From an uncultured Acidimicrobiia bacterium (GTDB lineage Bacteria; Actinomycetota; Acidimicrobiia; Spongiisociales; UBA5794): DNA of 64,000 bases. Positions 7,084 through 43,620 of the stretch are shown here, piece by piece. Numbering within the stretch: position 1 is the first letter of the stretch; each line of letters starts with the position of its first letter. The notes beneath the pieces were generated by a model. That model made no database searches. It worked only from the letters and a program-made list of their open reading frames with translations, and was not told the origin of the DNA. The DNA is taken from positions 69,864 to 133,863 of the forward strand of contig CAWIBM010000001.1 in assembly GCA_963834375.1 (NCBI GenBank), written 5' to 3'. Both the position numbers and the translations under genes were made by a program.

Positions 7084-8099
<1,016 letters not shown>

Positions 8100-8110
8100 G
8101 CCGACTGCCC

Positions 8111-8240
8111 CGAACCTGCAGGTCCTGGCATATCGCTCCGATATGGCAAGCGCCTCATCGCTCGCCGGCTCAGGGGCCACATCTGAAGCGAAGTTGAGAG
8201 AATCGACCTATCGCTCCGATAGGTGAGAACCTCAGGTTCG
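8111..8240. repeat. Palindromic intergenic element, copy A (terminal inverted arms, each holding a GAACCT-N-AGGTTC-type palindrome and a TATCGCTCCGATA box)
   Basis: Left arm 8111-8143: CGAACCTGCAGGTCCTGGCATATCGCTCCGATA. Right arm 8209-8240: TATCGCTCCGATAGGTGAGAACCTCAGGTTCG. The arms are mutually inverted except for the CTC box centre. The same architecture recurs at 52532-52655. Confidence 0.8.
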
Positions 8241-8248
8241 GCGGGACC

Positions 8249-9187
8249 TCATGGCTCGAATGGCCGGCCCAAGGCCGCCGGGGCGTCGGTGGCGAGCACC
8301 GCCCGCCAGGAGGGGAAGCGGTCGGCGAGGTTGCGGAACCAGCTGCGGTTGACCAGGACGAGCATGAAGATCATCAGCGGGAACGGCAGCAGCGGCAGGA
8401 TCTGCGACAGGCCAGGGAAGGTCGGTTGCAGCTTGAGGGCGACCACCTGGAGCGCCCCGAACAGGTAGGCACCGAAGGCGGCCCGCAGCGGGTGCCAGCC
8501 GCCGAAGATGACGATCGCCAGGGCGATCCAGCCGAACCCGGCGGTGTGCCGGAACGACCAGCCCAGCTTCACGTCGAGCGAGAAGGCGGCGCCTCCGATG
8601 CCGACCAGCGCCCCGCCGATGAGGGCGTACCGATAGCGGAGGCGGTTGACCGCCACCGCCCGGGCGTGTGCCGCTTCGGGCCGTTCGCCTACGCCACGGA
8701 GCACCAGCCCGGGACCGGTCCGGAACATGTACCAGGTGGAGATGGCGATCAGCGCCAAACCGGCGTACACCACGACGTTGTGCGAGAAGAAGACGGTACC
8801 CAGCCATGGGATGTCGGACAGCAGCGGGATCTCCCAGTGAGGGACGGCGGCACCGGGCTGGCCGACGAACGACACCCCGAGGAACGAGCTGAGCTCGATG
8901 CAGAGCAACGCCAGCACGAAGCCGACCGCCACCTGGTTGACCCGGAGCCCGATGCTGGCCCACGCCACGAGGGCGGCGACCGCGCCACCGACGATGGCGG
9001 CGGCGACGAACCCGACCCACCACTGGCCGGTCTCGTAGCCGGCGGCGAACCCGGCCAGAGCCGACAGCATGAGGCTGCCCTCCAACGAGAGGTTGATGAC
9101 CCCTGACCGCTCGGTGACGGTCTCGCCGATGACGGCGAAGATCAGCGGGGTGGCGGCGGCGACGATCGAGGCCAGCGTGGCGTCCAT
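8249..9187 (-). CDS. ABC transporter permease (BMP/nucleoside-type importer)
   Basis: Intact 312-aa ORF that is hydrophobic throughout. It is last in the operon SBP-ATPase-permease-permease, and its start overlaps the stop of the upstream permease by 1 nt. Confidence 0.85.
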   Translation of the reverse strand: MDATLASIVAAATPLIFAVIGETVTERSGVINLSLEGSLMLSALAGFAAGYETGQWWVGFVAAAIVGGAVAALVAWASIGLRVNQVAVGFVLALLCIELSSFLGVSFVGQPGAAVPHWEIPLLSDIPWLGTVFFSHNVVVYAGLALIAISTWYMFRTGPGLVLRGVGERPEAAHARAVAVNRLRYRYALIGGALVGIGGAAFSLDVKLGWSFRHTAGFGWIALAIVIFGGWHPLRAAFGAYLFGALQVVALKLQPTFPGLSQILPLLPFPLMIFMLVLVNRSWFRNLADRFPSWRAVLATDAPAALGRPFEP

Positions 9188-28344: not shown

Positions 28345-28433
28345 TACCATACTGGCATCGACGTCCGGTTGCGTGGACCACTCGCCGCGGCCACCGGCCC
28401 GGCGCTGGAGCGATCTCGTCGGTCGAAAACTCG

Positions 28434-29572
28434 CTACGGGCCGGACGCCTGGCTGGTTCGGAAGCCTCCACCGGCGGTGCGCGGTCCGAGCCCGAGCTCG
28501 GGGCGGGGTTGCTCGACTCCTTCGATCAGGTTGGCGACGTGCTCGGCCAGGGCCGGGCCGTGCTTGAACCCGTGGCCCGAGCCGCCGCCGACGATCCATA
28601 CGCCGTCGTGGTCGGGGTGGGGGGCGACGATCCACCGGCCGTCGGCGGTGGAGGTGTACTGGCAGGTCCGGGTGAGGGAGACCGGGGCGCCGGCGATGCC
28701 CGGGAACCGCCGTGCCAGATAGCGGCGACAGTGTGCGACGGCGGCGGCGTCCGGGACACGATCCCCGTGGTCGGGGTCGAAAGCGGGGCCGTCGAGGTCG
28801 GAGGCGACCTTGAAGCCCTTCCCGGCGACGTCGCCGGTCCCGTACATGGCGTGGTCGTGGTCGATCCATCCCGGCACGCCGGGCGCGGCCCACTCGGGCC
28901 CGACCCCGAAGAACACCACTTCCTGGCGGGTGACCCTTGCCTGCACCAAGTCCGGGAACAGGTGGGGTAGCCACGGCCCACACGCCCACACCACGACGTC
29001 GGCTTGCCGTGACTGCCCGTCGACGGCGACGCCGGCTCCGACCGGCACCGCCCGACCGACGGTGATGGTCGCACCGCGGCGACGAGCCCGGTCGGCGAGC
29101 ACGGTCACCGCCCGGGCCGCCCGCAGAACCCCCGCTTCGGGCTCGTACAGCGCGCCCGGGACATCGGAGGTGTCGACGCTGGGGAAGAGCTCCGCAGGTC
29201 GCCGTCGCCGACGACCTCGCTGGGGATGCCGAGCCGCTCCATCGTGTGCGTGGCTCGCCGCCACCCAGGGGATGCGGCGCCGAACCAGACCAGCCCGCTG
29301 GGTACCAACAGGTCGGCTACCGGTGTCGGCCTCGATCTCGGTCCCACAGCGCCCGCGCCCGCCACGCCATCGCCGTGTGCCACTCGTCGGGACCGTGGCC
29401 GTAGCGGATCAGCCGGGTCTCGCCGCCGCTCGACTGACGGGCGTGGCCCGGGTGGTACTGCTCGACCAGCTCGACTCCCAGCCGGCCCCGGCCAGGTGGT
29501 CGGCGATCGACACGAAGATGCCGAAGATCCCAGCGCCGACCGGCACGGCGATGGCGCTGCCGGCCGGTCCAC
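28434..29572 (-). pseudogene. FAD-dependent oxidoreductase (DAO / sarcosine- or glycine-oxidase-like), about 3 frameshifts
   Basis: VGAGIFG dinucleotide-binding motif. GETRLIRYGHGPDEW, VVWACGPWLPHLFP, VAPHPDHDGVWIVGGGSGHGFKHGPALAE. The 5' end is uncertain and abuts the ligase. Confidence 0.7.
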
Positions 29573-29579
29573 GCCCGGA

Positions 29580-30617
29580 TCGGCTCGCCACCACGTCGGT
29601 GAAGCCGGCTCCCTCGGGGCGCTGCAGCTGGTCGAGGGTGCACTCCTCGGCGGGCTTGTCGGGCCGCCAGCGCTCGAAGCGGGTGGCGTGGCGGAAGCGG
29701 ATGCCCTCCACCTGGTCGTACCCGATCTGGACGACCACCCCGGGCTCGACCGGCACCCAGTCGAGCTCCTTCCCGGTCGACCAGCGGCTCTGCGCCCCGG
29801 GGACCCTGGCCATGTCGTCCCCGCCGAAGCTCTCGTCGGTGCGGAGCTGCTCGAAGCGGCGGAGCAGCTCGACCCGGTCGTGGTCGGAGAACCCCGAGCA
29901 GTGCCCGACGAAGCTGAAGTTGCCGGCTCGTCGTCGTAGAGCCCGAGCAGGATCGAGCCGATCTTGTCGCCGTCCTTGTGGACCCGGTAGCCGCCGACCA
30001 CGCAATCGGCCTCGCGGCGGTGCTTCCACTTGATCCAGTCGCGCTTGCCCTCGAGGTAGCGGCCGGCGGCCGCCTTGGCGATGATGCCGTCGCAGCCGGC
30101 GGCCTCGTACTCGGTGAACCAGCGGGTGGCGACCTCGAGGTCGTCGGTCGACGGGGTCAGGTGCCACTGCCGGCCCAGGTCGTGCGGCGATGCCGTCGAG
30201 TCGGGCCCTTCTGGCGGACTGCGGCTCCTTGCGCAGGTCGACGCCGCCGAGGGAGAGCAGGTCGAAGACCACCAGCTCGGCGGGGGTCTGCTCGGCGAGC
30301 ATGTTGACCCGGGACGCCGCCGGGTGGATGCGCTGCTGGAGCGTCTCGAACTCGGTGACGTCGTCGACCACCACCACGATCTCGGCGTCGACCACCGTGC
30401 CCGGCGGCAGCTCGGCGGCGGCGGGTTCCAGTTCCGGGAAGTAGCGGAGCAGGTCCTTGCCGGTGCGCGAATCGATGCGGCGCCGGTCGCCGTCGGCCCA
30501 GATGATCGCCCGGAACCCGTCCCACTTCGGCTCGTAGACCCAGCCCGGGGGCGCGGGAGGGGTCTCCTTGGCCTTGGCCAGCATCGGCTTGATCGGCGGC
30601 GGGAAGGGCCAGGACAT
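29580..30617 (-). pseudogene. ATP-dependent DNA ligase (LigC-type, ligase domain only), 2-3 frameshifts; 3' end not resolved
   Basis: PMLAKA...WVYEPKWDGFRA (KxDG), VVFDLL, AAGCDGIIAK, KRDWIKWKH, VVGGYRVHKDGDKIGSILLGLYD, RFRHATRFERWRPDKPAEECT. Confidence 0.8.
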
Positions 30618-30667
30618 CGGCGTGGAGACTACCGGAGGCCCTCGTCGGCCCGGTCGGGCCGGTGGCT

Positions 30668-30812
30668 ATCCTCGGGCGGTCACCTCACCCCCGGGGTGGC
30701 GTGACAACTGAAGCTCGAAGCAGGGGAAGCCGGTCGAAGTCCGGCGCTGACCCGCAACCGTAGGCCGCCACGGGAAACCGGATGGCGGCGAGCCGGAGCA
30801 CCTGCCCGGGCA
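30668..30812 (+). promoter_or_regulatory. Cobalamin (B12) riboswitch
   Basis: Core 30723-30764: GGGGAAGCCGGTCGAAGTCCGGCGCTGACCCGCAACCGTAGG (GGGAA..GGU..AA.UCC...CCCGC.ACCGUA). GCCACGGGAAACCGG hairpin. B12 box 30791-30806: AGCCGGAGCACCTGCC. It lies 5' of a plus-strand operon. The outer borders are approximate. Confidence 0.85.
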
Positions 30813-30917
30813 GCGGCTCCATCCGTCGAGGTCTACGGGACGGAGCCCGGGACGATGGGCTCCCTCCCGGCACGGGATACGGCACCTCTCGAATCGGGTC
30901 CGTCTTGGACCCGCACC

Positions 30918-31960
30918 ATGAGAGGAGGCACGTACTCCGTCGACCCAACACCGCCACCATCACCACCGACGCCCCGCCGCAGAGCAGGCGCTGGCTCGTC
31001 GTCACCCTTGGCGTCCTGATCGTCGCCCTGCTCGGCTGGCTCGCCTGGTCATTCGTCGCCGGTGGCGACGAGTTCGCCGACGAAGCCGAGGCGGCCGCCG
31101 CCTGGGTCGCCGCCGAGTTCGACGAGCCGGCTCCGGGCTGGGCCGACTTCGGGCCGGGCGTCTACGCCGACATCGACCTCGGCCTTACCGCGGTGGGCAC
31201 CGAGGAGGAGACCGCCGATGCCGCGCTGGACAGCGCTGGCCGCCGAGAGCGAGGTCGTCCTCGGTGAGCCGGGAGCGGCAGCGGCGGGCGTGCTGGGCAA
31301 GGTGGTGCTGGCGATCGAGGCCCGCGGCCAGGATCCGGCCACCTTCATCGAAGGCCGCGACGTCGAGGCCGAGCTGCGCGGCATGCTCGGTGAGAGTGGG
31401 GCAGTTCGCCGGCGCCACCGTCTACGACCAGGCGCTGGCGATCCTCGGTCTGGCCGCCACCGACGAGGGCGTGCCCGAGGCAGGCCGGAGCCTGGCTGGC
31501 CTCGACGCAGTGCGAGCCGGGGGACTTCACCTTCGCCGGCGACTGCCCGGCGCCCGAAGGTGAGGAGGACCCCGACACCACCGCCATCGCCCTGCAGGCG
31601 CTGCTTGCCACCGGCGAGACCGAGGCGGCCGAGTCGACCACTACCTGGCTGTTGGACTGGCAGGGCGAGGACGGGTCGATCAGCGCCTTCGGCGCCGCCA
31701 ACGCCAACAGCACGGCGGTGGCGGCCCAGGCCCTCCGCGCCGCCGGGGAAGGAGATGCGGCCGACCTGGCCGCCGAGTTCGTGGCCGGCCTGCAGGTCGA
31801 CGAGCCGCCCGCCGACGCCGGGTCGATCAAGTTCACCGCCGAAGAGCTCGAGGGCAACGCCTTCGCCACCATCCAGGGGATGCTCGCCTTCGGTGCTCCG
31901 GCGCTGGACGCCATCGAGGCGGCCGGCTCGCTGATCCCGACGGTCGCCGTGATGCGATGA
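30918..31960 (+). pseudogene. Membrane-anchored prenyltransferase/squalene-cyclase-repeat (alpha/alpha-toroid) protein, about 4 frameshifts; start uncertain
   Basis: TM anchor RRWLVVTLGVLIVALLGWLAWSFV. Repeats YDQALAILGLAATDEG, TTAIALQALLATGE, DGSISAFG..NANSTAVAAQALRAAGE, ATIQGMLAFG. It is the first gene after the riboswitch. Confidence 0.6.
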
Positions 31961-32012
31961 GCGGCTCTGCCGGAACGCCGTGACTGGACGCGGGTGAGCA
32001 CGGCCCGTCGCC

Positions 32013-32662
32013 GTGGAGGGCTCCCGCCTTCACGGATGGCCGCTCGCCGCCCTGGTCGTCGGACTTCTGGCACCCGCCCCTTCGGTCGGCCCCTGGAACG
32101 CCGCCGCCCAGACAGCGGGCGCCTGCCCCGGAGACGACGGGGTGACGGTGGTTGTCGACGCCACCGCGCTCGGCGGCGAGCTGGTGGTGGGCTGCGCCTC
32201 CGGTTCCCCGCAGTCGGGGTTCGACGCCCTGGTCGCCGCCGGGTTCTCGGTCGAGGCGGTGGCCACCACTCCCGGCATGCTGTGCCGCATCGACGGCCTC
32301 CCCACTCCCGGCGAGGAGACCTGCGCCGACGACCCGCCGGCCGACTTCTACTGGGCCTACTGGACCGTGATTCGGGTGGGTGGCGCTACGCCACCGAGGG
32401 CGCCGCCACCCGGGAACCCGAGGTGGGGTCGGTCGAGGGATGGTCCTTCGTCGACGGGGATGCCACCGACCCCGCCGCCACCCGGGGTCGATCCCACCGA
32501 GCTCGGCCCGGTCGGCGTCCTCGGAGCCGGGCGATGCAGCCGATCCTCCTCCCGGTCTTCCGGGGCGACGGCGATCGGTGTCGGGGTGGTGGCCGCCTTC
32601 GCCGTGGTCGGCTACCGCCATGCCCGTCGCCGGCGGCGAACATCGAACGCGGGAGCGCGTGA
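32013..32662 (+). pseudogene. Exported DUF4430-like (transcobalamin beta-domain-like) protein with a C-terminal TM anchor, 2-3 frameshifts
   Basis: Signal peptide GWPLAALVVGLLAPAP. GVTVVVDATALGG...GFDALVAAGF...LCRIDG...FYWAYWT..GGWRYATEGA...VEGWSFVDG pattern. Anchor AIGVGVVAAFAVVGYRHARRRR. Confidence 0.55.
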
Positions 32663-33766
32663 CCACCGTCACCGGGCAGGCGGCTGCACCCGGGCTCGTG
32701 GTGGTTGTGGGCGCTCGGTCTGGCCACCGCCGCCAGCCGCACCACCAACCCGCTGCTCCTGCTCCTCATCATCGCCGTGGCCTGCTCTGGTGGTGGCGGT
32801 GCACCGCTCGGACACGGTGTGGGCCCGGGGGTTCCGCTACTACTTCTGGGCGGGGCTGTTCGTGGTGATCCTCCGGGTCTCCTTCCGGGTGGTGCTCGGT
32901 GGCATCGTGCCCGGGCGGGTCCTGTTCACGCTCCCCGAGGTCGACGCTGCCGGAGTGGATGGCGGGAGTGACCCTCGGCGGGCCGGTGACGGTGGAGAGC
33001 GTGGTCGGTGCCCTCTACGACGGCCTCCGGCTGGCCGCCATGCTCATCTGTGTCGGCGCCGCCAACGCCCTGGCCGACGCCAAGCGGTTGCTGCGATCCG
33101 TGCCGCGGGCGCTCCACGACTCTGGGGGCGGCCCTGGTGGTGGCGGTGGGCTTCGCCCCGCAGCTGGTCGAGAGTGCCCGCCGGGTGCGCCGGGCGCAGC
33201 GGCTCCGCGGGCACCCGGGCGGGGGCCGGCATGTGGTCCGTCGCACCGTGATGCCGGTGCTCGAGGGCGCAACCACCAGGGCCCTCGTCTTGGCCGGCTC
33301 GATGGAGGCCAGGGGCTACGGCCGGGAGGCGACGCCGGGGCGGCGGCGTGCGTTCACCACAGGCCTGGTGCTGGCCGGGCTGGCGGGCGTGGCGGTGGGC
33401 ACGTACGGGCTGATGGACGGCACCGCGGCGTGGTGGCTCGGTATCCCCGTGTTGCTGGCCGGCCTCGGCATGGCCATGGTCGGCTTCGCCGTGGCCGGAC
33501 GGGGGGTCGGGGCCACCGCCTACCGACCCGACCCCTGGGAGGGCCCAGAGTGGTTCGTGGCCGGCTGCGGCCTGGTTGCCGCCGTCGGGGTGATTCTCGC
33601 CGGGGCGGCCGATCCCTCCGCCCTCTTCCCATCGCCGTCGGAGTGGCCGCCGCTGAGCGTGCCGGCAACCGTGGCGGTGGTGGTGGCGGCGTTGCCCGCG
33701 GTCCCTCACCTGGCGCCGGCACTGGACCGCCGGCCGGCGATGTCCGGCGAGGGGAGCGCCCCATGA
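32659..33766 (+). pseudogene. Energy-coupling-factor transporter transmembrane (T) component, EcfT/CbiQ family, about 4 frameshifts in the 5' half
   Basis: GTGA overlap at 32659. WWLWALGLATAASRTTNPLLLLLII, ALYDGLRLAAMLICVGAANAL, VESARRVRRAQRLRG, LEGATTRALVLAGSMEARGYG. Confidence 0.75.
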
Positions 33767-35373
33767 TCCGCTTCGACGGGCTGTCAATCACCTACGCCGG
33801 TGCCTCCCGGCCGACTCTCCGCGATCTCGACCTGGCGATCCCCGAAGGTGAGCTGGCCCTGGTCATCGGCCCCACCGGCTCGGGGAAGTCCACCCTGTTG
33901 GGGACGGTCAACGGTCAGGTGCCCCGCTTCACCGGCGGGACCCTCGCCGGTCGTGTCACCGTCGACGGCCGGGACACCGCCGTCCACACGACCAGGGAGA
34001 TGGCCGACCTGGTGGGCGTGGTTCCGCAGCATCCCGCCGCCGGCTTCGTCACCGACGTGGTCGAGGAGGAGCTCGCCTACGGGATGGAGCAGTTGGGCCT
34101 TCCCCCGGCGGTGATGCGCCGCCGGGTGGAAGAGACCCTCGACCTGCTGGGGATCGCCCACCTGCGTGACCGGGCGGTGGCTTCCCTGTCCGGCGGCGAG
34201 CAGCAGCGGGTCGCCATCGGTGCCGTGCTCACCGCCCACCCGCGGGTGCTGGTGCTCGACGAGCCGACCTCGGCGCTCGACCCGACCGCCTCGGAGGAGG
34301 TGCTCGCCGCGGTCACCCGGCTGGTGCACGACCTGGCGATGACGGTGGTGATGGCGGAGCATCGCCTGGAACGCGTCGTGCAGTACGCCGACCGGGTGAT
34401 CGCGCTCGACGGCTCCGGCGGGGCTGCCGCCGGCCCGGCAGAGTCGGTGCTCGCCGCCTCGCCGATCGCCCCTCCGGTGGTGATGCTGGGTCGGCTGGCC
34501 GGCTGGGACCCGGTGCCACTGAGCATCCGCCAGGCCAGACGCCACGCCGGCGATCTGCGCCGCCGCCTCCACGGCGCCACCCCGCCAGGAAGCGCGGCCG
34601 GCCCGGGGCCGGCCGTGGTGGCCTCCAAGGGCCTCGTGGTCACCCACGGGACGACCACGGCGGTGCGGTCGGTCGACCTCGAGGTCGGCGAGGGAGAGGT
34701 CGTCGCCCTGATGGGTCGCAACGGGTCGGGCAAGACCTCGCTGCTGTGGGCGGTCCAGGGCTCGGGGCGTCGGGCCGCCGGCTCGGTGGCGGTCGACGGG
34801 GTGGACCCGGCGGGAACCGCGCCGGCGGTGGCGCGACGCCTGGTCGCCCTGGTGCCGCACGACCCGTCGGACCTGCTCTTCGCCGACTCGGTGGACGAGG
34901 AGTGCGCCGCCGGAGACGCCGAGTCCGCCGTCGACCCGGGATCGTGCCGCCGCCTCCTCGACCGGATCCTCCCCGGCGTACCGGGCGACCGGCATCCCGG
35001 CGACCTGTCGGAGGGCCAGCGGCTGGCGCTGGTACTCGCCATCCAGCTCGCCGCCTCGCCGCGGGTGCTGCTGCTCGACGAACCGACCCGAGGGCTCGAC
35101 TACGCCGCCAAGCGGCACCTCACCGGCGTGCTCGCCGCGCTCGCCACCGAGGGAAAGGCCGTGGTGGTGGCCACCCACGACGTCGAGTTCGCTGCCGCCA
35201 CCGCCACCCGGGTGGTGGTGATGGCACAGGGGGAGGTGGTGGCAGATGGGCCGACTGCCTCGGCGCTCACTGCCTCGCCGGCGTTCTCGCCCCAGGTGGC
35301 CCGGGTGATGCGGCCCGACCCATGGCTCACCGTGGACGAGATCGCTGCCGCACTGGGCGAGGCCTCGCCGTGA
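33763..35373 (+). CDS. Fused double ATPase of an ECF/ABC transporter (EcfA-EcfA')
   Basis: Intact 536 aa with an ATGA overlap. Walker A GPTGSGKST and GRNGSGKTS. Signatures LSGGEQQR and LSEGQRL. Walker B VLVLDEPTS and LLLDEPTR. Confidence 0.9.
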   Translation: MIRFDGLSITYAGASRPTLRDLDLAIPEGELALVIGPTGSGKSTLLGTVNGQVPRFTGGTLAGRVTVDGRDTAVHTTREMADLVGVVPQHPAAGFVTDVVEEELAYGMEQLGLPPAVMRRRVEETLDLLGIAHLRDRAVASLSGGEQQRVAIGAVLTAHPRVLVLDEPTSALDPTASEEVLAAVTRLVHDLAMTVVMAEHRLERVVQYADRVIALDGSGGAAAGPAESVLAASPIAPPVVMLGRLAGWDPVPLSIRQARRHAGDLRRRLHGATPPGSAAGPGPAVVASKGLVVTHGTTTAVRSVDLEVGEGEVVALMGRNGSGKTSLLWAVQGSGRRAAGSVAVDGVDPAGTAPAVARRLVALVPHDPSDLLFADSVDEECAAGDAESAVDPGSCRRLLDRILPGVPGDRHPGDLSEGQRLALVLAIQLAASPRVLLLDEPTRGLDYAAKRHLTGVLAALATEGKAVVVATHDVEFAAATATRVVVMAQGEVVADGPTASALTASPAFSPQVARVMRPDPWLTVDEIAAALGEASP

Positions 35374-36197
35374 CCGCCCGGGTGGTGCCCACGGGGTGGC
35401 GGACGTCGGCGATCCTCGTGGTGGCGTCGGTGGCCGGCCTCCTCGCCTTCGCCTGGCCGCTGCTGGTTGAGCCGGGAAGCATGCTGGTGGCCCACGTGAC
35501 CGACGCTCCGTTCCTGTTCGTGGCCGTGGTGCCGGTGGTCATCGCCGTCGTCCTCGCCGAGATGGGCTCGGGCGGCATCGACACCAAGGCGGTGGCGATG
35601 CTCGGCATTCTCTCCGCCCTCGGGGCGGCCCTTCGTCCGTTGGGAGCCGGGCTGGGGGGCATCGAGACCGTGTTCTTCCTGCTCATCCTCGGGGGCAGGG
35701 TGTTCGGCCCGGGCTTCGGCTTCGTCCTGGGATCCACCACGCTGTTCGGCTCGGCGCTGCTCACCGCCGGGGTCGGGCCGTGGCTCCCGTTCCAGATGCT
35801 CGCCGCCTCGTGGGTGGGGATGGGCGCCGGCCTGCTCCCGCGGGCACGGGGACGGGCGGAGATCGCCCTGCTCGCCGCCTATGGCGGGGTGAGCGCCCTG
35901 GTGTTCGGGTTGCTGATGAACCTCTGGTCGTGGCCGTTCGTTCTCGGCACCGGCACCGAGATCTCGTTCGTCCCCGGCGCCCCGCTCGGCGAGAACCTGC
36001 GGCGGTTGATCGCCTACTCGCTGGTGACCTCGCTGGGCTGGGAGGTGGGCAGGGCGGTCACCAACACGGTACTCATCGTGCTGGTCGGGAGCGCCGTGCT
36101 CGGGGCGTTGCGCCGGGCCGATCGCCGTTTCGCCTTCGACGCGCCTATCAGGTTCGAGACGTCGGAGACCGAAGGGTCATCGGCCTTCCGCCGGTAG
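35370..36197 (+). CDS. Polytopic membrane protein, probable ECF substrate-specific (S) component
   Basis: Intact 275 aa with a GTGA overlap onto the ATPase gene and about 6 hydrophobic helices. It is not CbiM-like. The position is typical of a group-I ECF S component. Confidence 0.6.
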   Translation: MTARVVPTGWRTSAILVVASVAGLLAFAWPLLVEPGSMLVAHVTDAPFLFVAVVPVVIAVVLAEMGSGGIDTKAVAMLGILSALGAALRPLGAGLGGIETVFFLLILGGRVFGPGFGFVLGSTTLFGSALLTAGVGPWLPFQMLAASWVGMGAGLLPRARGRAEIALLAAYGGVSALVFGLLMNLWSWPFVLGTGTEISFVPGAPLGENLRRLIAYSLVTSLGWEVGRAVTNTVLIVLVGSAVLGALRRADRRFAFDAPIRFETSETEGSSAFRR

Positions 36198-36207
36198 TGT
36201 CGGGCGC

Positions 36208-37476
36208 ATGCCTCCTGAGGCCCGGACCGTGCAACGGACCTACCTGCTGCTCACGCTTCTCACCGTGCTGGCGGCATCGATGATCTGGGGCATCAACACG
36301 CTGTTCCTGCTCGACGCCGGGCTGAGCAACACCCAGGCGTTCACCGCCAACGCTTTCTTCACCGCCGGGAGGTGCTGTTCGAGGTGCCCACCGGCATCGT
36401 CGCCGACACCAGGGGGCGGCGGACGTCCTTCATGTTCGGGGCATCCACTCTGCTGGTGTCCACCCTGATGTACCTGTTCATGTGGCAGGTAGAGGCGCCG
36501 CTCTGGGGCTGGGCGATCGCCTCGGTGGTCATCGGGCTGGGGTTCACGTTCTTCTCGGGGGCGACCGAGGCGTGGTTGGTCGACGCCTTGGGAGGACCGG
36601 GTTACACCGGTGACCTCGAGTCGGTGTTCGCCCGAGGCCAGGCGGTCGCCGGGGTCGCCGTGCTGATCGGATCGATCGGCGGCGGGTTCATCGCCCAGGT
36701 GACGAACCTCGGCGTCCCCTACCTGCTGCGGGCAGCCTTGCTCGGGATCACCGTCGTGGTGGCGCTGTGGCGGATGCACGACCTGGGCTTCACGCCCCGA
36801 ACGCCGCGGCGGCCCGGTCGAGGAGATGCGGCGCATGGTCCACGCCGGCATCGACGTCGGCTGGAAGCAACGACCGATCAGGATGATGATGCTGGCCGCC
36901 CCGTTCACGATGGGCATCGCCATATACGCCTTCTACGCCATGCAGCCCTACCTGCTCGAGCTGTACGGCGACGAGACCGCGTTCGGGATAGCCGGGCTGG
37001 CGGCGGCGGCGGTGGGCGGCTCCCAGGTTGCCGGCGGGCTGCTGGTGCCCTACGCTGCGCCGGCTGTTCCGGACTCGCACCGGTCTGGTGATCTTCGCCG
37101 AGGTGACCGGAGTCGTCGCTCTCATCGGTATCGGATTGACTTCAAACTTTGCTTTCGCGCTGGGGCTCTTCGTCGCCTGGGCCATCGGCTCGGCGTTCCG
37201 CCTGCCGTGCGGCAGGCCTTCATCAACCCGCTGATCCCGGCGCAGCAGCGGGCGACGGTGCTCTCGTTCGATGCCCTGATGGGCTCGGCCGGCGGGGTCG
37301 TCGCCCAGCCGGCCCTCGGGCGGGTCGCCGACGTTTCCGGATACGCCGCTTCCTACGTCGTCTCCGGTGCGGTCAGCGCCCTGGCCATCCCGTTCCTGAT
37401 GATCGCCCACAGGGAGAGGGCGCCGTCCGACCCGATCGGGGTCGGGGGGCCCGAGCCCGAGGTGCCGCTGGCCTGA
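36208..37476 (+). pseudogene. MFS transporter, at least 4 frameshifts
   Basis: Hydrophobic fragments in three frames: TYLLLTLLTVLAASMIWGINTLFLLDAG, LFEVPTGIVADTRGRR (MFS loop 2-3 motif), MMMLAAPFTMGIAIYAFY, TVLSFDALMGSAGGVVAQPALGRVAD. Confidence 0.75.
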
Positions 37477-37488
37477 GCGGCCGACGCT

Positions 37489-38055
37489 TCAGACGCCGCG
37501 GTACTTGATGCTGCACCCCATCGACGGGAACTGGTCCGCAGCCACCGGCTGGTCGCTGCGTACCGCTTCGATGGCCGCCCGCAGCTCCTCCCCGGTGACG
37601 GGGACCAGCGAGTTGGGCCGGCTCTCGTCCATCCGGCCCCGGTAGACCAGGCCGCGGTCCGGGCCAAACAGGAAGAAGTCGGGGGTGCACGCCGCCGAAT
37701 AGGCGCGGGCGACATCCTGGCTCTCGTCGAAGAGGTACGGGAAGCGTGTATCCCCGGTCGGCGGCCTCGGCCTTCATCGTCTCCGGGCGGTCCTCCGGGT
37801 AGTCCTCGACGTCGTTGCTGTTGATGGCGACGATGGCGACGTCGCTGACGGCGCATAGTCACGGCCCAGGTCGGCGAGCCCGGCGGCCACGTGCTTGACG
37901 TACGGGCAGTGGTTGCAGATGAACATCACCAGCAGCGCCTTGGCGGCGGTGAAGTCGTCGCAGGGAAACGGCCTGCGGCCGGTCGTCACGTCGGGCAGGG
38001 CGAAGTCGGGCGCCTCGGTGCCCAGGGGCATCATCAGCGAGATGGCGGCCACGGA
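37489..38055 (-). pseudogene. Thioredoxin-fold thiol:disulfide oxidoreductase (redoxin/AhpC-TSA-like), 2 frameshifts
   Basis: AGGAGGA SD precedes GTG 38055. LGTEAPDFALPDV, LLVMFICNHCPYV (CxxC). Then VAIVAINSNDV, TPDFFLF, and MGCSIKYRGV* after frame changes. Confidence 0.7.
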
Positions 38056-38074
38056 TCCTCCTGATGTCTCGGGG

Positions 38075-38487
38075 TCAGCCGGGTACACCGTAGCTACGGA
38101 GGGCGTCCGCCAAGCCGTCGATGTCGGCGACGGTGACGGTCAGGGCGAGTGTGGCGCGGGGAACAGCAACGGCCCGGTGCGAGGGACCGGCTGGTGAAAG
38201 CAGACGCACACCCCGGCGTCGGCATTGGACCCGAAGGTGAGGCCATGGTCTGCCAGCGACGAGCGCACCCCGATGGCCCGGTACCACCGGTAGTCACGGG
38301 TGACCTCGAAGCGGGCGAGGTTGGTGGTCGGTGTCTCCACCGCCCAGCGTCCGAACTGGGCGGTGAAGGTGTTCGCGGTCAACTGGATGCCCGAGTTGGC
38401 CGCGGTGATCCCGCCGAGACGCAGCACGGTGGCGAACTTCGGGTCGAATCGGAACGGGAAGCGATACGATGTGGTCAGCCTTCGCAT
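38075..38487 (-). pseudogene. Hypothetical protein, one frameshift near 38170
   Basis: ORF 38140..38487 (MRRLTTSYRFPFRFDPKFATVLRLGG...) continues as ...ATLALTVTVADIDGLADALRSYGVPG* in the frame of ORF 38075..38287. No family recognised. Confidence 0.4.
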
Positions 38488-38787
38488 GCCAGGCGGCGTG
38501 AGTCGGGCGACCGGCCCGGCCCGCCACCGAGGAGGATAGCGAGGTCGCGCTCGGCGTCCGGTGGGTCACCTGCACCTGTGGCGGCACCACATGCCGCACC
38601 GCCACCAGCGAGTAGGGCACGGAGTGCCATACGGCCGGCGAAGGTGCTAGGGGTCCCCGGCGCTGCCGGTGGGAAGCAACCGAGCGGGACGCTCACCCCG
38701 AGGCCGGCCCGGCGCCCACGCGAATGTGCACGAGGCGCCTGCCGGGAAGCAGGGGCCTGAGACCGGACAGCGAGCGAGGTGGCGGAG

Positions 38788-40104
<1,317 letters not shown>

Positions 40105-40107
40105 GCC

Positions 40108-42318
40108 GTGACCGCCACGGACCTCAGCCCTGACCCACATCCAGCTCACCGTCGACGACGGGGTCGCGGTCGCCCTGCTCGACCGTGCCGGAGAATCGCT
40201 CAACACGGTGAACCCCGAGCTGGCCGGCGACCTGGCCACGGTGGTCGACCGAGGTGGAACGGGACCCGTCGATCAAGGCGCTGGTCATCGGCTCGGCCAA
40301 GCGGGACAACTTCCTCGCCGGGGCCGACATCCGCTGGCTGCAGGCGTTCCAGGACCCGGCTTCGGCGAGCGAGGCGCTCGGCCAAGGCCAGCGGCTGTTC
40401 GCCCGGATCGAGCGGCTCCACACGGTCATGGGGAAGCCGGTGGTGGCGGCGATCCACGGGCCCTGTCTCGGCGGCGGGCTCGAGCTCGCCATGGCCTGCG
40501 GCATCCGCATCTGCCTCGGACGACGAGAGCGAAGACCCAGCTCGGCCAGCCCGAGGTGAAGCTCGGGCTGATCCCGGGCGGCGGCGGAACCCAGCGGCTC
40601 CCCAGCTGGTCGGCATCGCCGCCGGCCTCGACCTGATGATGTCCGGGCGGTCGGTGCGCCCGGCGAGTGCCCTCAAGATGGGGCTGGTCGACGAGATCTG
40701 CCCGAAGGAGGTGCTGCTCGACGTCGCCGTCACCCGGGCGCGCCAGGCGGTCGGGCGACCCAGACGAGACGCCGACCGGCTCCACGTTCGGGCGGATCAC
40801 CGGGTGGCTGTCGCCCAAGCACCTCCAGGAGCTGGCCCTCGAGGAGAACCCGATCGGGCGCCGGCTGCTCTTCTCCAAGGCCGAGGAGCGGATGCTCGAG
40901 GAGACCGGCGGGAACTACCCGGCGCCGGCCGCCGTGCTCCGGGCGGTCAAGGCCGGGGTCGAGCAGGGACCGGAAGCCGGTTACGCCGCCGAGCTGGCGG
41001 AGTTCGCCACGCTGGTGGTGTCTCCCGAGGCCAAGGCGCTGATCGGGGTGTTCTTCGACTCCCAGGCGCTCAAGACGACCGCTGGTGTCGTGCGGCGACG
41101 TCACGCCCCGCCCGGTGGCCAAGGTCGGGGTGATCGGTGGAGGGTTGATGGGCGGCGGCATCGCCGCGGTGAACACGCTGCCAGGCCGGGGTGCGCACCC
41201 GGCTGAAGGAGATCGACGCAGTGCCCGGGTGGGGCGCGGCCTGGCCCACGTCGGCGCGCAGGTCGAGCGAGCAGGTGGCCAGCCGGCGGCTCGCACGAAC
41301 GTGATGCGGACAAGGCCGGCCAGCTGGTCACCGGTACGGTCGACTGGTCCGGGTTCCCGACGCCGACGTGGTCATCGAGGCGGTGTTCGAGGACCTCGAC
41401 CTGAAGCGATGCGGTGCTCGCCGAGGTCGAGGCGGTGACCGGGGCCGGACACCATCTTCGCCTCGAACACCTCGTCGATCCCGATCGCCCACATCGCCGA
41501 AACGGCGTCGCCCGGCCGCGAGAACGTCATCGGCATGCACTACTTCTCCCCGGTGGAGAAGATGCCGCTGCTCGAGGTCGTGGTCGCACCGACGACACGC
41601 CGACGAGGTCACCGCCACCTGTGTCGAGTTGGGCAGGCGCCAGGGCAAGACGGTGATCGTGGTCAACGACGGTCCCGGCTTCTACACCTCCCGGATCCTC
41701 GTCCCCTACATGAACGAGGTCGGCCACCTGCTCGCCGACGGGGTCCGGATCGAGGACATCGACCAGGCGATGACCCGCTGGGGGTTCCCGGTCGGTCCGG
41801 TGACCCTGGCCGACGAGGTGGGCATCGACGTCGGGGCCAAGATCGGCGTGATCATGGAGCGAGGCGTTCGGCTCGCGGATGGCGCCCAGCCAGGGCTTCG
41901 CCCGGCTGGTGGCGGACGGGCGCAAGGGACGCAAGAACGGCCGCGGGTTCTACCGGTACGAGGACGGGGCCCGGCAGGGGGTCGACCCGTCGGTGTACGA
42001 CCTGCTCGGGGTCACCCCGGGCCGCCGGGCTGCGCACCGACCAGGTCCAGGAGCGGCTCTACCTGCACCTGCTCAACGAGGCGGCGCGCTGCCTGGAGGA
42101 GGGCGTCCTGCGCAGCGCCCGCGACGGGGACGTCGGGGCCGTGTTCGGGCTGGGCTACCCGCCGTTCCGCGGCGGCCCGTTCACCACCATCGACCGTCTC
42201 GGCGCCGCCGAGGTCGTGGCCCGGCTGAAGCCGCTGGCCGACGGCGCACGGCGACCGATACGCCCCCGCCGACCTGCTCCGCACCGCCGCCAAGGACGGC
42301 AAGCCCCTCAGGGGCTGA
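40108..42318 (+). pseudogene. fadJ: Multifunctional enoyl-CoA hydratase / 3-hydroxyacyl-CoA dehydrogenase (FadJ/FadB-type), many frameshifts
   Basis: [172 protein letters not shown]. Confidence 0.85.
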
Positions 42319-42358
42319 CAACCACGGACCGACCCCCAAGACCGTCGTCGTGGCCGGA

Positions 42359-42911
42359 TCAGCCGGCCAGGTTGAAGGGGACCAGCGTGATGGTGGCGAC
42401 GCCGATGTCCAGGGCAACCTCGTCGCCGCCCGAGAACGGGCCGGTGACGGTGTAGCCGCCTCCCTGCGGGCTGAGCGTGTGCACGATGATCTCGGCGCCA
42501 TCGGGCCCTTCAGGTTCGACCACCCAGTACCTCGGCACTCCGCCGGCGGCGTACTTGTGCGCCTTGCGGACGAGGTCTCGGCCTCGATCGGTGGACAGGA
42601 TCTCCACCAGGAGGTAGGGCGTCCCCGTGTACCGGATGTTGTCCTCGGACGAGGCATCGAACACGATCACGTCCGGCACGAACTCGTCCCGCCCGACCTT
42701 CCACGCCCAATCGCGCAGCACGTCGATGCTGGTCGGCAGCTGGGCGAAAGCAGGGCGTCTCGACGTTCCTTCCGATGCGTTGGTGGCGTCTGGTGGCTGA
42801 CGGGCTCACCACGAACTCCCCGTCGACGTACTCGCCACGGGCCTCCTCGGGGAGCGCCAGGTATTCGTCCCACGACATGGGGACCCGATCGCCGTCCTGC
42901 ATGGTGACCAT
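42359..42911 (-). pseudogene. Uma2-family (DUF820) endonuclease, one frameshift near 42750
   Basis: [30 protein letters not shown], then [44 protein letters not shown]. Confidence 0.75.
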
Positions 42912-43008
42912 CGCGCCATCCACGGTACTCCTCGTGCTCGTCACACCGACCTCCCGGCCCAGGGCTACGACGACGAATCTACGAGGAGCCTGTGACAGGA
43001 CTCTGGGA

Positions 43009-43620
43009 TCACACGGCCAGGGTGAGCTCCCAGCGGTCGTCGGTCGTCGGGGCGAAACCGACCTTGCGCAGGTAGCGACGGTGCGGGTCGGTGGTGGCGA
43101 CGGCCGCCACCCGGTGGATGCCGTGCTCGTCGAGTAGCTGGTGCGGCGAGCGGTAGAGGAACCGGGCCGGCTCCATGTCGCGGTAGCGGGGAGCCACGTA
43201 GTCGAGCTCGATCTCCAGCGTGTCCCCGTACTGGCGACCGATCACGACTCCCGCGGGGACCATGTCGCGCAGCACGAACACCACGATCCGGTCGGCGCCG
43301 ATCGGGAGCGCGAACTCGGGCTGGAACTTCTCGATCTCGTCGGTGTGGAATTCGAGGTACTCGTTGAGGTACACCGAGTCGGGCTGCACCTCGAGCAGTG
43401 AGAAGTACTCCTCGTCGGTCCACCACTGCCACAGCCGGAACCCATGGAGCCCGACGATGACGGCGTTGGTCGCCGCCACCGGGTAGGCGCCCACCAGCAG
43501 TGCGTAGATGCAGAACAGGAACGAGCCGACCAGGCCGATCATCCGCAGCTTGAGCACCGACGACATCGAGAGCGAGATGACGACGGTGAGGGAGGCGACG
43601 TACCCGAGGACCTCGATCAC
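43009..43620 (-). CDS. Fusion of a 3-helix membrane module (YgjV/SemiSWEET-like) with a GNAT-like cytoplasmic domain
   Basis: Intact 203 aa. Residues 1-65 contain three hydrophobic helices ([46 protein letters not shown]). The C-terminus reads [20 protein letters not shown]...[24 protein letters not shown]. Confidence 0.55.

Follow-up and report, generated by a model that had tools for sequence, protein, structure and literature searches.

Which genes does an uncultured bacterium of the Acidimicrobiia place behind a vitamin B12 sensor, and what might their products do? The question is raised by five genes that follow a cobalamin riboswitch in a 64,000-nucleotide stretch of its DNA (the whole stretch is called the window here; positions 69,864 to 133,863 of contig CAWIBM010000001.1, assembly GCA_963834375.1). 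A first reading made from the letters alone, the sequence-only reading, had proposed that two exported and anchored proteins of this operon together resemble a split transcobalamin and are coupled to an energy-coupling factor (ECF) transporter. We followed this proposal up by computation. Every element of it that could be tested in this way held, with corrections that are given below. We think that the operon encodes a high-affinity system for the scavenging and import of corrinoids that is switched off by B12, and we put the probability of this reading at about 70%. The ligand may be vitamin B12 or another cobamide, possibly cobinamide too. The reading is built on the leader RNA, on the predicted folds of the two surface proteins, on natural fusions between their families, on the make-up of the transporter, and on the company that the genes keep in other genomes.

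Is there a riboswitch at the head of these genes? The core (30723-30764) and the B12 box (30791-30806) that had been picked out by eye are both in the sequence. The Rfam cobalamin model RF00174 matches over its full length (model positions 1-189) with 37.3 bits, above the gathering score of 31.5 (E = 7e-6), and this is the sole Rfam match within the 64-kb window. At the gathering score RF00174 found an aptamer 5' of 10 of 20 scanned operons of this kind; from these matches we built a clade-specific nhmmer profile and a clade-specific covariance model (R1), which together yielded 65 aptamers. With R1 the aptamer of the window scores 111.8 bits. The aptamer core is invariant in an alignment of 12 sequences. 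Across the 65 aligned aptamers, compensatory changes on both sides occur in 13 of 19 pairs, 96.9% of the cells are paired, and covariation reaches a score of 0.41, where slid controls give 0.06-0.09, although the alignment was fitted to the model and these counts lean toward that structure. Downstream of the aptamer, five co-directional coding regions are apparent from a frame plot of GC content at third codon positions (GC3) and from three-frame translation. As had been reported, the last four are joined by 4-nt overlaps (GTGA at 32659, ATGA at 33763 and GTGA at 35370). The parts are listed in table 1.

Table 1. Parts of the operon in the window; T, A-A' and S denote the components of the ECF transporter.
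Feature	Position	Strand	Evidence or remark
Cobalamin riboswitch aptamer, RF00174	30677-30823	+	Rfam match, covariation
Leader, probable expression platform	30825-30938	+	strong Shine-Dalgarno sequence GAGAGGAGG at 30920-30928
Gene 1, exported alpha/alpha toroid with transmembrane anchor, about 341 aa	30939-31960	+	predicted counterpart of the transcobalamin alpha half
Gene 2, exported beta-grasp protein of probable SCO2322 family with C-terminal transmembrane segment, 215 aa	31994-32662	+	predicted counterpart of the transcobalamin beta half
EcfT, CbiQ-type T component, about 367 aa	32659-33766	+	Pfam CbiQ, indel-corrected
Fused EcfA-A' ATPase with two ABC domains, 536 aa, intact	33763-35373	+	Pfam, NCBIfam
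Probable ECF S component, 275 aa, intact	35370-36197	+	homologs named ECF transporter S component

How might the aptamer act on the genes behind it? To address this we folded the leader of a cleaner ortholog, locus L002. Its minimum-energy structure has a long hairpin (z = -5.2) on the 3' side of the aptamer, in which the Shine-Dalgarno sequence and the GUG start codon are hidden. Scans of the operon for intrinsic terminators and for sigma-70 promoters found none. Because this hairpin is predicted in L002 and no terminator was found, our guess is that control is exerted on translation; attenuation of transcription is not claimed, the terminator scan of the operon being empty.

Are the genes themselves intact? 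As deposited, genes 1, 2 and T are each spread over three to four reading frames. The gene 2 motifs to which attention had been drawn (FYWAYWT, GGWRYATEGA and EGWSF) are present, but lie in two different frames. We therefore aligned the DNA three ways with L001 and L002, two loci on long metagenomic contigs that were chosen via their 97-99% identical copies of S. Fourteen single-base indels between 31233 and 33122 are private to the window, 12 insertions and 2 deletions. Gene 1 has private insertions at 31233, 31398 and 31482; gene 2 has private indels at 32002, 32368, 32468, 32519, 32562, 32632 and 32639; T has private insertions at 32670, 32785, 32941 and 33122. With the 14 indels taken out, all three genes become continuous, at the lengths entered in table 1. 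Corrected in this way, gene 1 is 95% identical to an intact ortholog (P0193) and gene 2 is 93% identical to another (P0121); the nearest named relatives of both proteins come from metagenome-assembled genomes (MAGs) of Acidimicrobiia. The start of gene 1 is damaged as well. Its GTG start codon (about 30939-30942) is garbled by three 1-nt insertions, so that positions 30930-30949 of the window read ACTCCGTCGACCC as against ACTCGTGCCC in L002, and just 5' of the Shine-Dalgarno sequence an out-of-frame ATG at 30918 stands in place of the TTG of its relatives. P0193 begins MPNTT, from GTG.

The same kind of damage is found on either side of the operon. Private indels number 13 over 2.3 kb on the upstream side and 62 over 7 kb on the downstream side, where the relatives have 2-16; in the window as a whole (for example in 28370-30700 and 36150-43190) the density is about one per 110-180 bp, with coding periodicity preserved. 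Frame switches recur every few hundred bases over the whole window, and GC3 periodicity is undiminished. L001 and L002 carry the same operon, fragmented at different positions: gene 2 and T are intact in L002, and A is intact in L001. Since private indels are equally dense outside the operon, we attribute the frameshifts to sequence quality; they are assembly errors and not gene decay, and because they are, we presume that the operon is functional in the organism. The window as a whole resembles an unpolished long-read assembly, and an annotation based on open reading frames (ORFs) would come out badly fragmented.

What kind of protein is the product of gene 2? Judged by the hydropathy of intact orthologs, it starts with a signal-like segment and ends with a transmembrane segment that is followed by RRR. 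In the family alignment these enclose a conserved domain of some 110 residues with four invariant cysteines, and a proline-rich linker of very variable length. By sequence the family belongs to PF28005/NF040672, named 'SCO2322': PF28005 is recorded on orthologs of gene 2 with 93% and 80% identity and on most family members, and NF040672 gives a partial match to the protein of the window itself (model positions 8-53; 38.7 bits, where the cutoff is 85). As modelled by AlphaFold, the domain has a predicted local distance difference test score (pLDDT) above 90 for residues 41-170. It consists of strands b1 (49-55) and b2 (63-69), a helix (75-81), an insert (86-88 and 96-99) and then strands b3 to b5, that is, of a beta-grasp core whose helix is followed by a two-strand insert. 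Such a post-helix two-strand insert defines the transcobalamin-like clade of SLBB domains (PMC1796856).

To ask what this model resembles, we compared it with the Protein Data Bank (PDB) by Foldseek. The top matches are the beta domains of transcobalamin, intrinsic factor and haptocorrin (5no0, 5np4, 8ixt, 2pmv and 4kki), and both haptocorrin and a bacterial DUF4430 structure, 3u7z, lie within the top sixteen. The probabilities are mostly 0.9-1.0, and the target-normalised template-modelling scores are 0.59-0.71 for the stand-alone beta-domain entries and 3u7z. The functional uniformity of these matches to a predicted fold is striking. Gene 2 had been read as carrying a signal peptide, a DUF4430-like domain and a C-terminal anchor; the signal-like segment, the anchor and the DUF4430-type fold stand, the last of them, as judged from the model, at the level of fold only.

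And gene 1? The intact orthologs have a single transmembrane segment after RR at the N-terminus, by hydropathy, and relatives are annotated as prenyltransferase/squalene-oxidase-repeat or LPXTG-anchored proteins. Against the PDB, the family profile matches the repeats of squalene-hopene cyclase with E = 1.4e-17. Among 37 family members, hidden Markov models (HMMs) for SQHop_cyclase_C match 16, those for Prenyltrans and TED_complement 14 each, LPXTG anchors seven and SLH one. Cobalamin_bind (PF01122), the model of the transcobalamin alpha domain, finds weak matches, below its threshold, in four of the 37 (best E 0.004). For P0335 the score is 21 bits, the cutoff being 25, and the ortholog of the gene 1 of the window has no match to this model. 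The AlphaFold (AF2) model is all-helical with a pLDDT of 90.3. Its Foldseek matches in the PDB are led by single-domain 'squalene-hopene cyclases' and drimenyl diphosphate synthase (best 8pak and 7xq4). Rat transcobalamin follows at rank 4 (E = 1.2e-4, 19% identity over 288 columns), rat and human transcobalamin occupy ranks 4, 9 and 12, and intrinsic factor is found further down. On its predicted structure gene 1 is an alpha/alpha toroid with QW-type repeats, and the N-terminal anchor followed by a toroid, as first proposed, is borne out. We conclude from the transmembrane and signal segments, from the LPXTG, SLH and CWB2 anchors of relatives and from the four invariant cysteines of gene 2 that both surface proteins are extracytoplasmic.

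The Foldseek matches of the two models, taken together, support the likeness to a split transcobalamin; natural fusions of the two families add to it. An exhaustive profile search for the gene 2 family yielded 4,463 representative clusters, and among the best 150 of these 4,463 we found proteins in which a toroid and an SCO2322 domain share one chain. P0351 has a signal peptide, a toroid, an SCO2322 domain, a proline-rich linker and a transmembrane anchor; the two domains follow one another in the order of transcobalamin, with no spacer between them. P0339 has the opposite arrangement of SCO2322 domain, linker and toroid, with an LPXTG-type anchor at its end, and P0304 runs beta, toroid, beta. 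P0313 and P0306 also belong to the fused relatives, and P0306 (883 aa) combines a toroid and two SCO2322 domains with three CWB2 cell-wall-binding repeats. CWB2 anchoring is typical of Clostridia, and the SCO2322-type domain is therefore not restricted to Actinomycetota. The abutting of the domain boundaries speaks for real fusions and against merged gene calls. The fusions support the view that the two proteins of the window act together on one ligand.

To what transporter would such a pair be coupled? The frame-stitched T protein matches Pfam CbiQ (PF02361) with 29.6 bits against a cutoff of 25, and contains the ARG coupling motif in ...MEARGYG...; the gene is intact in L002 with 367 aa. The A-A' protein matches Pfam ABC_tran twice (E = 1.2e-48), its top NCBIfam models are ECF_ATPase_1 and ECF_ATPase_2, and the cbiO model TIGR01166 scores 230.9 against a cutoff of 211.8. 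The S gene, which overlaps the A gene by 4 nt, encodes a hydrophobic product. The family of this protein is large and actinobacterial; more than 7,900 homologs were found, and many of them contain PF12822 and go under the name 'ECF transporter S component'. The S protein of the window itself was matched by no Pfam or NCBIfam model, CbiM/NikM included, and the family profile matched no PDB chain at E <= 10, ECF-CbrT (6FNP) included. Since its family profile matches no solved structure, S is not detectably related to CbrT. The assignment of two of the last three genes to EcfT and fused EcfA-A' was thus correct and that of the third to S is probable from its homologs; the remark that S does not look like CbiM holds, and the six transmembrane segments ascribed to S are only roughly supported by hydropathy. 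By homology, T, A-A' and the probable S component form a dedicated (group I) ECF module.

Do these genes occur together elsewhere? To answer this, we searched one genome per GTDB species with a profile of the S component, which is better conserved than gene 2 and gives a less biased test of co-occurrence. At least 586 species-representative stretches encode a relative of S. Our comparative counts rest on the best 80 loci, nearly all of them from Actinomycetota (Streptomyces, Amycolatopsis, Micromonospora, Knoellia, Nocardioides, Janibacter, Microthrixaceae, Acidimicrobiia and others), and the counts of linkage on the 64 in which 6 kb or more of sequence precedes S. When the five families were mapped by HMM, A was found in all 64 (64/64) and T in 63/64. 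Gene 2 lies directly 5' of T in 57/64; genes 1 and 2 are both upstream in 47/64, and both present anywhere in the locus in 52/64. An aptamer is found at 52 of the 54 loci in which the start of the operon can be observed, as had been expected of a gene set that sits behind B12 riboswitches across the phylum. Directly 3' of the aptamer stands gene 1 (39 cases), gene 2 (16), T (four) or S (one). Across Actinomycetota the five genes and the aptamer are tightly co-inherited.

Stand-alone relatives of both surface proteins were met in the same loci. A second SCO2322-domain gene, standing alone, lies 3' of S on the opposite strand in L004 (7335-8083, minus strand), L005 (2396-3139, minus) and L054 (7416-8156, minus), each time with a cobalamin aptamer of its own that scores 83-89 bits with R1. 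Gene 1-type toroid paralogs with their own aptamers are found in L011 (8942-10298, plus), L025 (8291-9476, minus), L041 (7937-9125, minus) and L076 (7730-9787, minus); in L076 the toroid paralog is accompanied by a gene 2 paralog, and the T, A and S genes have no aptamer. It follows that the putative binders are B12-regulated also outside the ECF operon. Tandem duplication of the gene 1/gene 2 pair 5' of T was seen in L018, L022, L023, L025, L026, L036, L041, L048 and L049, from Pseudonocardiales and relatives, and tandem pairs also stand 5' of T in L010, L021, L060 and L065. In the Micromonospora loci L021, L060 and L065 the aptamer lies between the first and the second pair, at about 1000-1150.

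Two loci have a further aptamer close behind the operon. In L011, from an Embleya sp., a 91-bit RF00174 aptamer directly 3' of the ECF operon (7794-8574, minus strand) precedes a PduO-type cob(I)alamin adenosyltransferase with the motif IYTRTGDAGTT. In L060, from Micromonospora carbonacea, the S gene is closely followed by an RF00174 aptamer of 88 bits (7475-8323, plus strand), and this precedes a 170-aa protein that resembles a hotdog-fold thioesterase, an unexpected B12-regulated gene. L033 and L053, which are labelled as Chloroflexia and Anaerolineaceae MAGs, are the two loci that rank first in S identity (70-71%) and in gene 1 score; the labels could reflect mis-binning or lateral transfer of the actinobacterial operon.

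How would a corrinoid pass through such a system? When intracellular B12 is low, the Shine-Dalgarno sequence and the start codon would be accessible and the operon would be translated. At the outer face of the membrane, the toroid, held by its N-terminal transmembrane helix, and the beta-grasp domain, held by its C-terminal transmembrane helix on a proline-rich stalk, would together clamp a single corrinoid, in the manner of the two transcobalamin domains. The clamped ligand would then be handed to the S component, which would topple in the membrane against EcfT, and hydrolysis of ATP by EcfA-A' would reset the transport cycle. In B12-replete cells the aptamer would bind B12, and the Shine-Dalgarno sequence and the GUG would be sequestered. 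That the proteins of the window bind and transport corrinoids is what we infer.

What weighs against the operon being a corrinoid importer? The DUF4430 model, PF14478, matches none of 28 gene 2 family members at E <= 10 and gives no match to the protein of the window; a comparison of gene 2 with solved structures at the level of sequence returned no PDB match; and the Foldseek E-values of its model are weak, about 0.01. Gene 1 is no less similar to terpene cyclases and prenyltransferases than to transcobalamin, and the invariant aspartate of its D-x-D-T-T-A motif aligns with the DxDDTA of squalene-hopene cyclase. The hairpin that would hide the Shine-Dalgarno sequence is a prediction from the single sequence of L002. 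Hosts such as Streptomyces, Amycolatopsis and Micromonospora are, as tabulated in a review and generally known, B12 producers, so that their need for uptake is not obvious. Lastly, the sole experimentally studied system of the same composition, that of Lactobacillus sakei, is tied, in the passage that describes it, to heme uptake (bioRxiv 10.1101/864751).

Might the transcobalamin-like pair capture heme or another non-corrin tetrapyrrole for import? Deletion of the L. sakei genes lsa1836-1840 lowered heme uptake, and heme could be docked between the alpha-like and the beta-like protein of that species; that study did not assay cobalamin, and the passage mentions no riboswitch (bioRxiv 10.1101/864751). 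Here, a covarying cobalamin aptamer stands before 52 of 54 observable operons and before stand-alone paralogs, B12 would have no obvious reason to repress a heme importer, and the genomic context points to a PduO-type adenosyltransferase; we regard heme as an improbable ligand. Transport of cobalt ions or of an early corrin precursor, rather than of finished cobamides, with the surface proteins accessory or unrelated, seems to us to have a similarly small chance of being right. In its favour, cobalt ECF systems, CbiMNQO among them, are commonly governed by B12 riboswitches, the T and A proteins match CbiQ and cbiO models respectively, and many of the hosts are B12 producers. But S has no match to CbiM or NikM and its homologs carry PF12822, a clamp of transcobalamin-type toroid and beta-grasp domain suits a large organic ligand and not a metal ion, and ECF-CbrT demonstrates that whole cobalamin and cobinamide are within the reach of ECF transport. 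Our proposal of corrinoid import leaves room for cobinamide as a co-substrate.

Gene 1 might instead be an extracytoplasmic terpene cyclase or prenyltransferase, or a glycan-active toroid, that serves a B12-regulated modification of the envelope, its likeness to transcobalamin going no deeper than the fold. The leading structural matches, the profile match at 1.4e-17 and the alignment of the invariant aspartate with a catalytic one all favour an enzyme. However, the family consensus is D-P-D-T-T-A: the third aspartate of the motif has become threonine, and the DxDD catalytic motif is incomplete. The protein is moreover exported or wall-anchored, away from the pools of isoprenoid diphosphates; in thousands of genomes it adjoins a transcobalamin beta-type domain or is fused to one; and it is tied to an importer and a B12 aptamer. 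We consider an enzyme very improbable. Hardly to be credited is a decaying operon whose first three genes are true pseudogenes here. Genes 1, 2 and T do each contain 3-7 indels that shift the frame, and a start codon is missing from gene 1, yet private 1-bp indels are as dense or denser in the flanks and frame switches occur window-wide; two near-identical assemblies are broken at other positions; GC3 periodicity is undiminished; and removal of the indels gives proteins that are 93-95% identical to intact orthologs. This explanation was rejected on the window-wide density of private indels.

How new is a corrinoid importer of this design? The design is not new: it was predicted in 2007, a system of the same composition is described in L. 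sakei, and models of the SCO2322 family are already in Pfam and NCBIfam. Burroughs, Balaji, Iyer and Aravind (2007; PMC1796856) predicted that transcobalamin-like SLBB domains, later Pfam DUF4430, scavenge B12. These domains are secreted or anchored; alpha/alpha toroids are often fused to them or lie next to them, and genes for CbiO-like ATPases and CbiQ-like permeases share their operons (PMC1796856). The hairpin insert after the helix in this clade is the same topology as that of the gene 2 model, whereas the gene 2 family escapes the DUF4430 HMM and has its own models, PF28005 and NF040672. In that paper Actinobacteria appear only for ComEA, and neither the link to a riboswitch nor the doubly membrane-tethered split arrangement is described.

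In L. sakei, the lsa1836-1840 unit is described by Verplaetse et al. (bioRxiv 10.1101/864751) as comprising S, fused A-A', T, and beta-like and alpha-like exported proteins, and it had been annotated automatically as cobalamin transport. Matched by this description of its composition, it has the same five parts as the operon of the window. It differs in belonging to a Firmicute and in its gene order and anchoring: the L. sakei proteins have export signals and, in that description, are treated as soluble, whereas those of the window are anchored by transmembrane segments. Its phenotype is heme uptake and the passage mentions no riboswitch, whereas the operon of the window has a B12 aptamer.

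Mammalian transcobalamin, intrinsic factor and haptocorrin sandwich one cobalamin between an alpha6/alpha6 toroid and a beta-grasp domain, and the pair in the window is predicted to share these folds. The mammalian carriers are, however, single chains with the toroid before the beta domain, whereas the window has two separate genes whose products are each tethered to the membrane; the identity to the proteins of the window is only 14-19%; and the carriers deliver to an endocytic receptor, the system of the window, as we picture it, to an ECF transporter. Among bacterial importers, ECF-CbrT of Lactobacillus delbrueckii is an ECF-type ABC importer of cobalamin and cobinamide (PMC5997447). CbrT is a group II S component that shares a general ECF module and binds its substrate itself, without an extracellular partner, whereas the system of the window has its own T and A-A', two surface partners and an S component without detectable sequence similarity to any solved one. 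In acI Actinobacteria, an ECF module with cobalamin/AdoCbl riboswitches ahead of it has been proposed as a cobalamin transporter (PMC5301498); in this it is like the operon of the window, but no transcobalamin-like surface proteins are mentioned for it.

A search of the literature found no paper that characterises the actinobacterial system, though Rodionov 2009 (J Bacteriol) and Vitreschak 2003 (RNA) were outside its coverage, and no paper on 'SCO2322' was found in the searchable literature. The sequence-only reading had called the architecture annotated but uncharacterised. This stands for the actinobacterial case; it does not stand for the architecture at large, which had been predicted in 2007 (PMC1796856) and of which a five-gene unit of matching description has been studied in L. 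sakei (bioRxiv 10.1101/864751). That the actinobacterial operon is an uncharacterised case of a known design is well supported. What is added here is model-based evidence that the SCO2322 family, which no HMM connects to DUF4430, is a transcobalamin-beta-type domain by fold, a quantified coupling of operon and riboswitch across Actinomycetota, the doubly membrane-tethered split arrangement, and fusion proteins in both orders.

The surroundings of the operon can be read with the help of L001 and L002, from which the annotations are taken. Upstream are an ATP-dependent DNA ligase and a DAO-family oxidoreductase (window 29409-30617, minus strand); downstream are a major facilitator superfamily (MFS) transporter and an AhpC/TSA redoxin (window 36208-37476, plus strand). 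None of ten confident ORFs scanned elsewhere in the window is related to B12. These ten include xanthine-dehydrogenase-like subunits, a Bmp/PnrA-type ABC importer, an H+-pyrophosphatase and GFO/IDH/MocA oxidoreductases.

What would follow for the Actinomycetota? Mycobacteria take up B12 via BacA. To our knowledge, the B12 uptake of other Actinomycetota is essentially undocumented. The operon family occurs in at least 586 species-representative genomes, and a B12 aptamer nearly always stands before it. If our inference holds, this operon family would be the corrinoid importer of those Actinomycetota, and ECF transporters would gain a class with external capture proteins. It would also provide a tractable split or fused homolog, by fold, of transcobalamin for studies of how tightly B12 is bound and which cobamides are selected in the communities of soil, wastewater and freshwater, and the assignment of the same-composition system of L. 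sakei to heme, as that passage gives it, would be due for re-examination. A more far-reaching version, to which we give a little under even odds, is that the operon is the principal corrinoid route of most Actinomycetota and the first ECF class to need tethered capture proteins, with a two-chain transcobalamin drawn from the SCO2322 family. In the textbook view, an ECF transporter binds its substrate through the S component alone. Were the version just given true, it would contradict that view and would offer a bacterial model for the origin of the B12 carriers of animals by fusion. In either form, the proposal makes the acquisition of B12 by actinobacteria directly testable.

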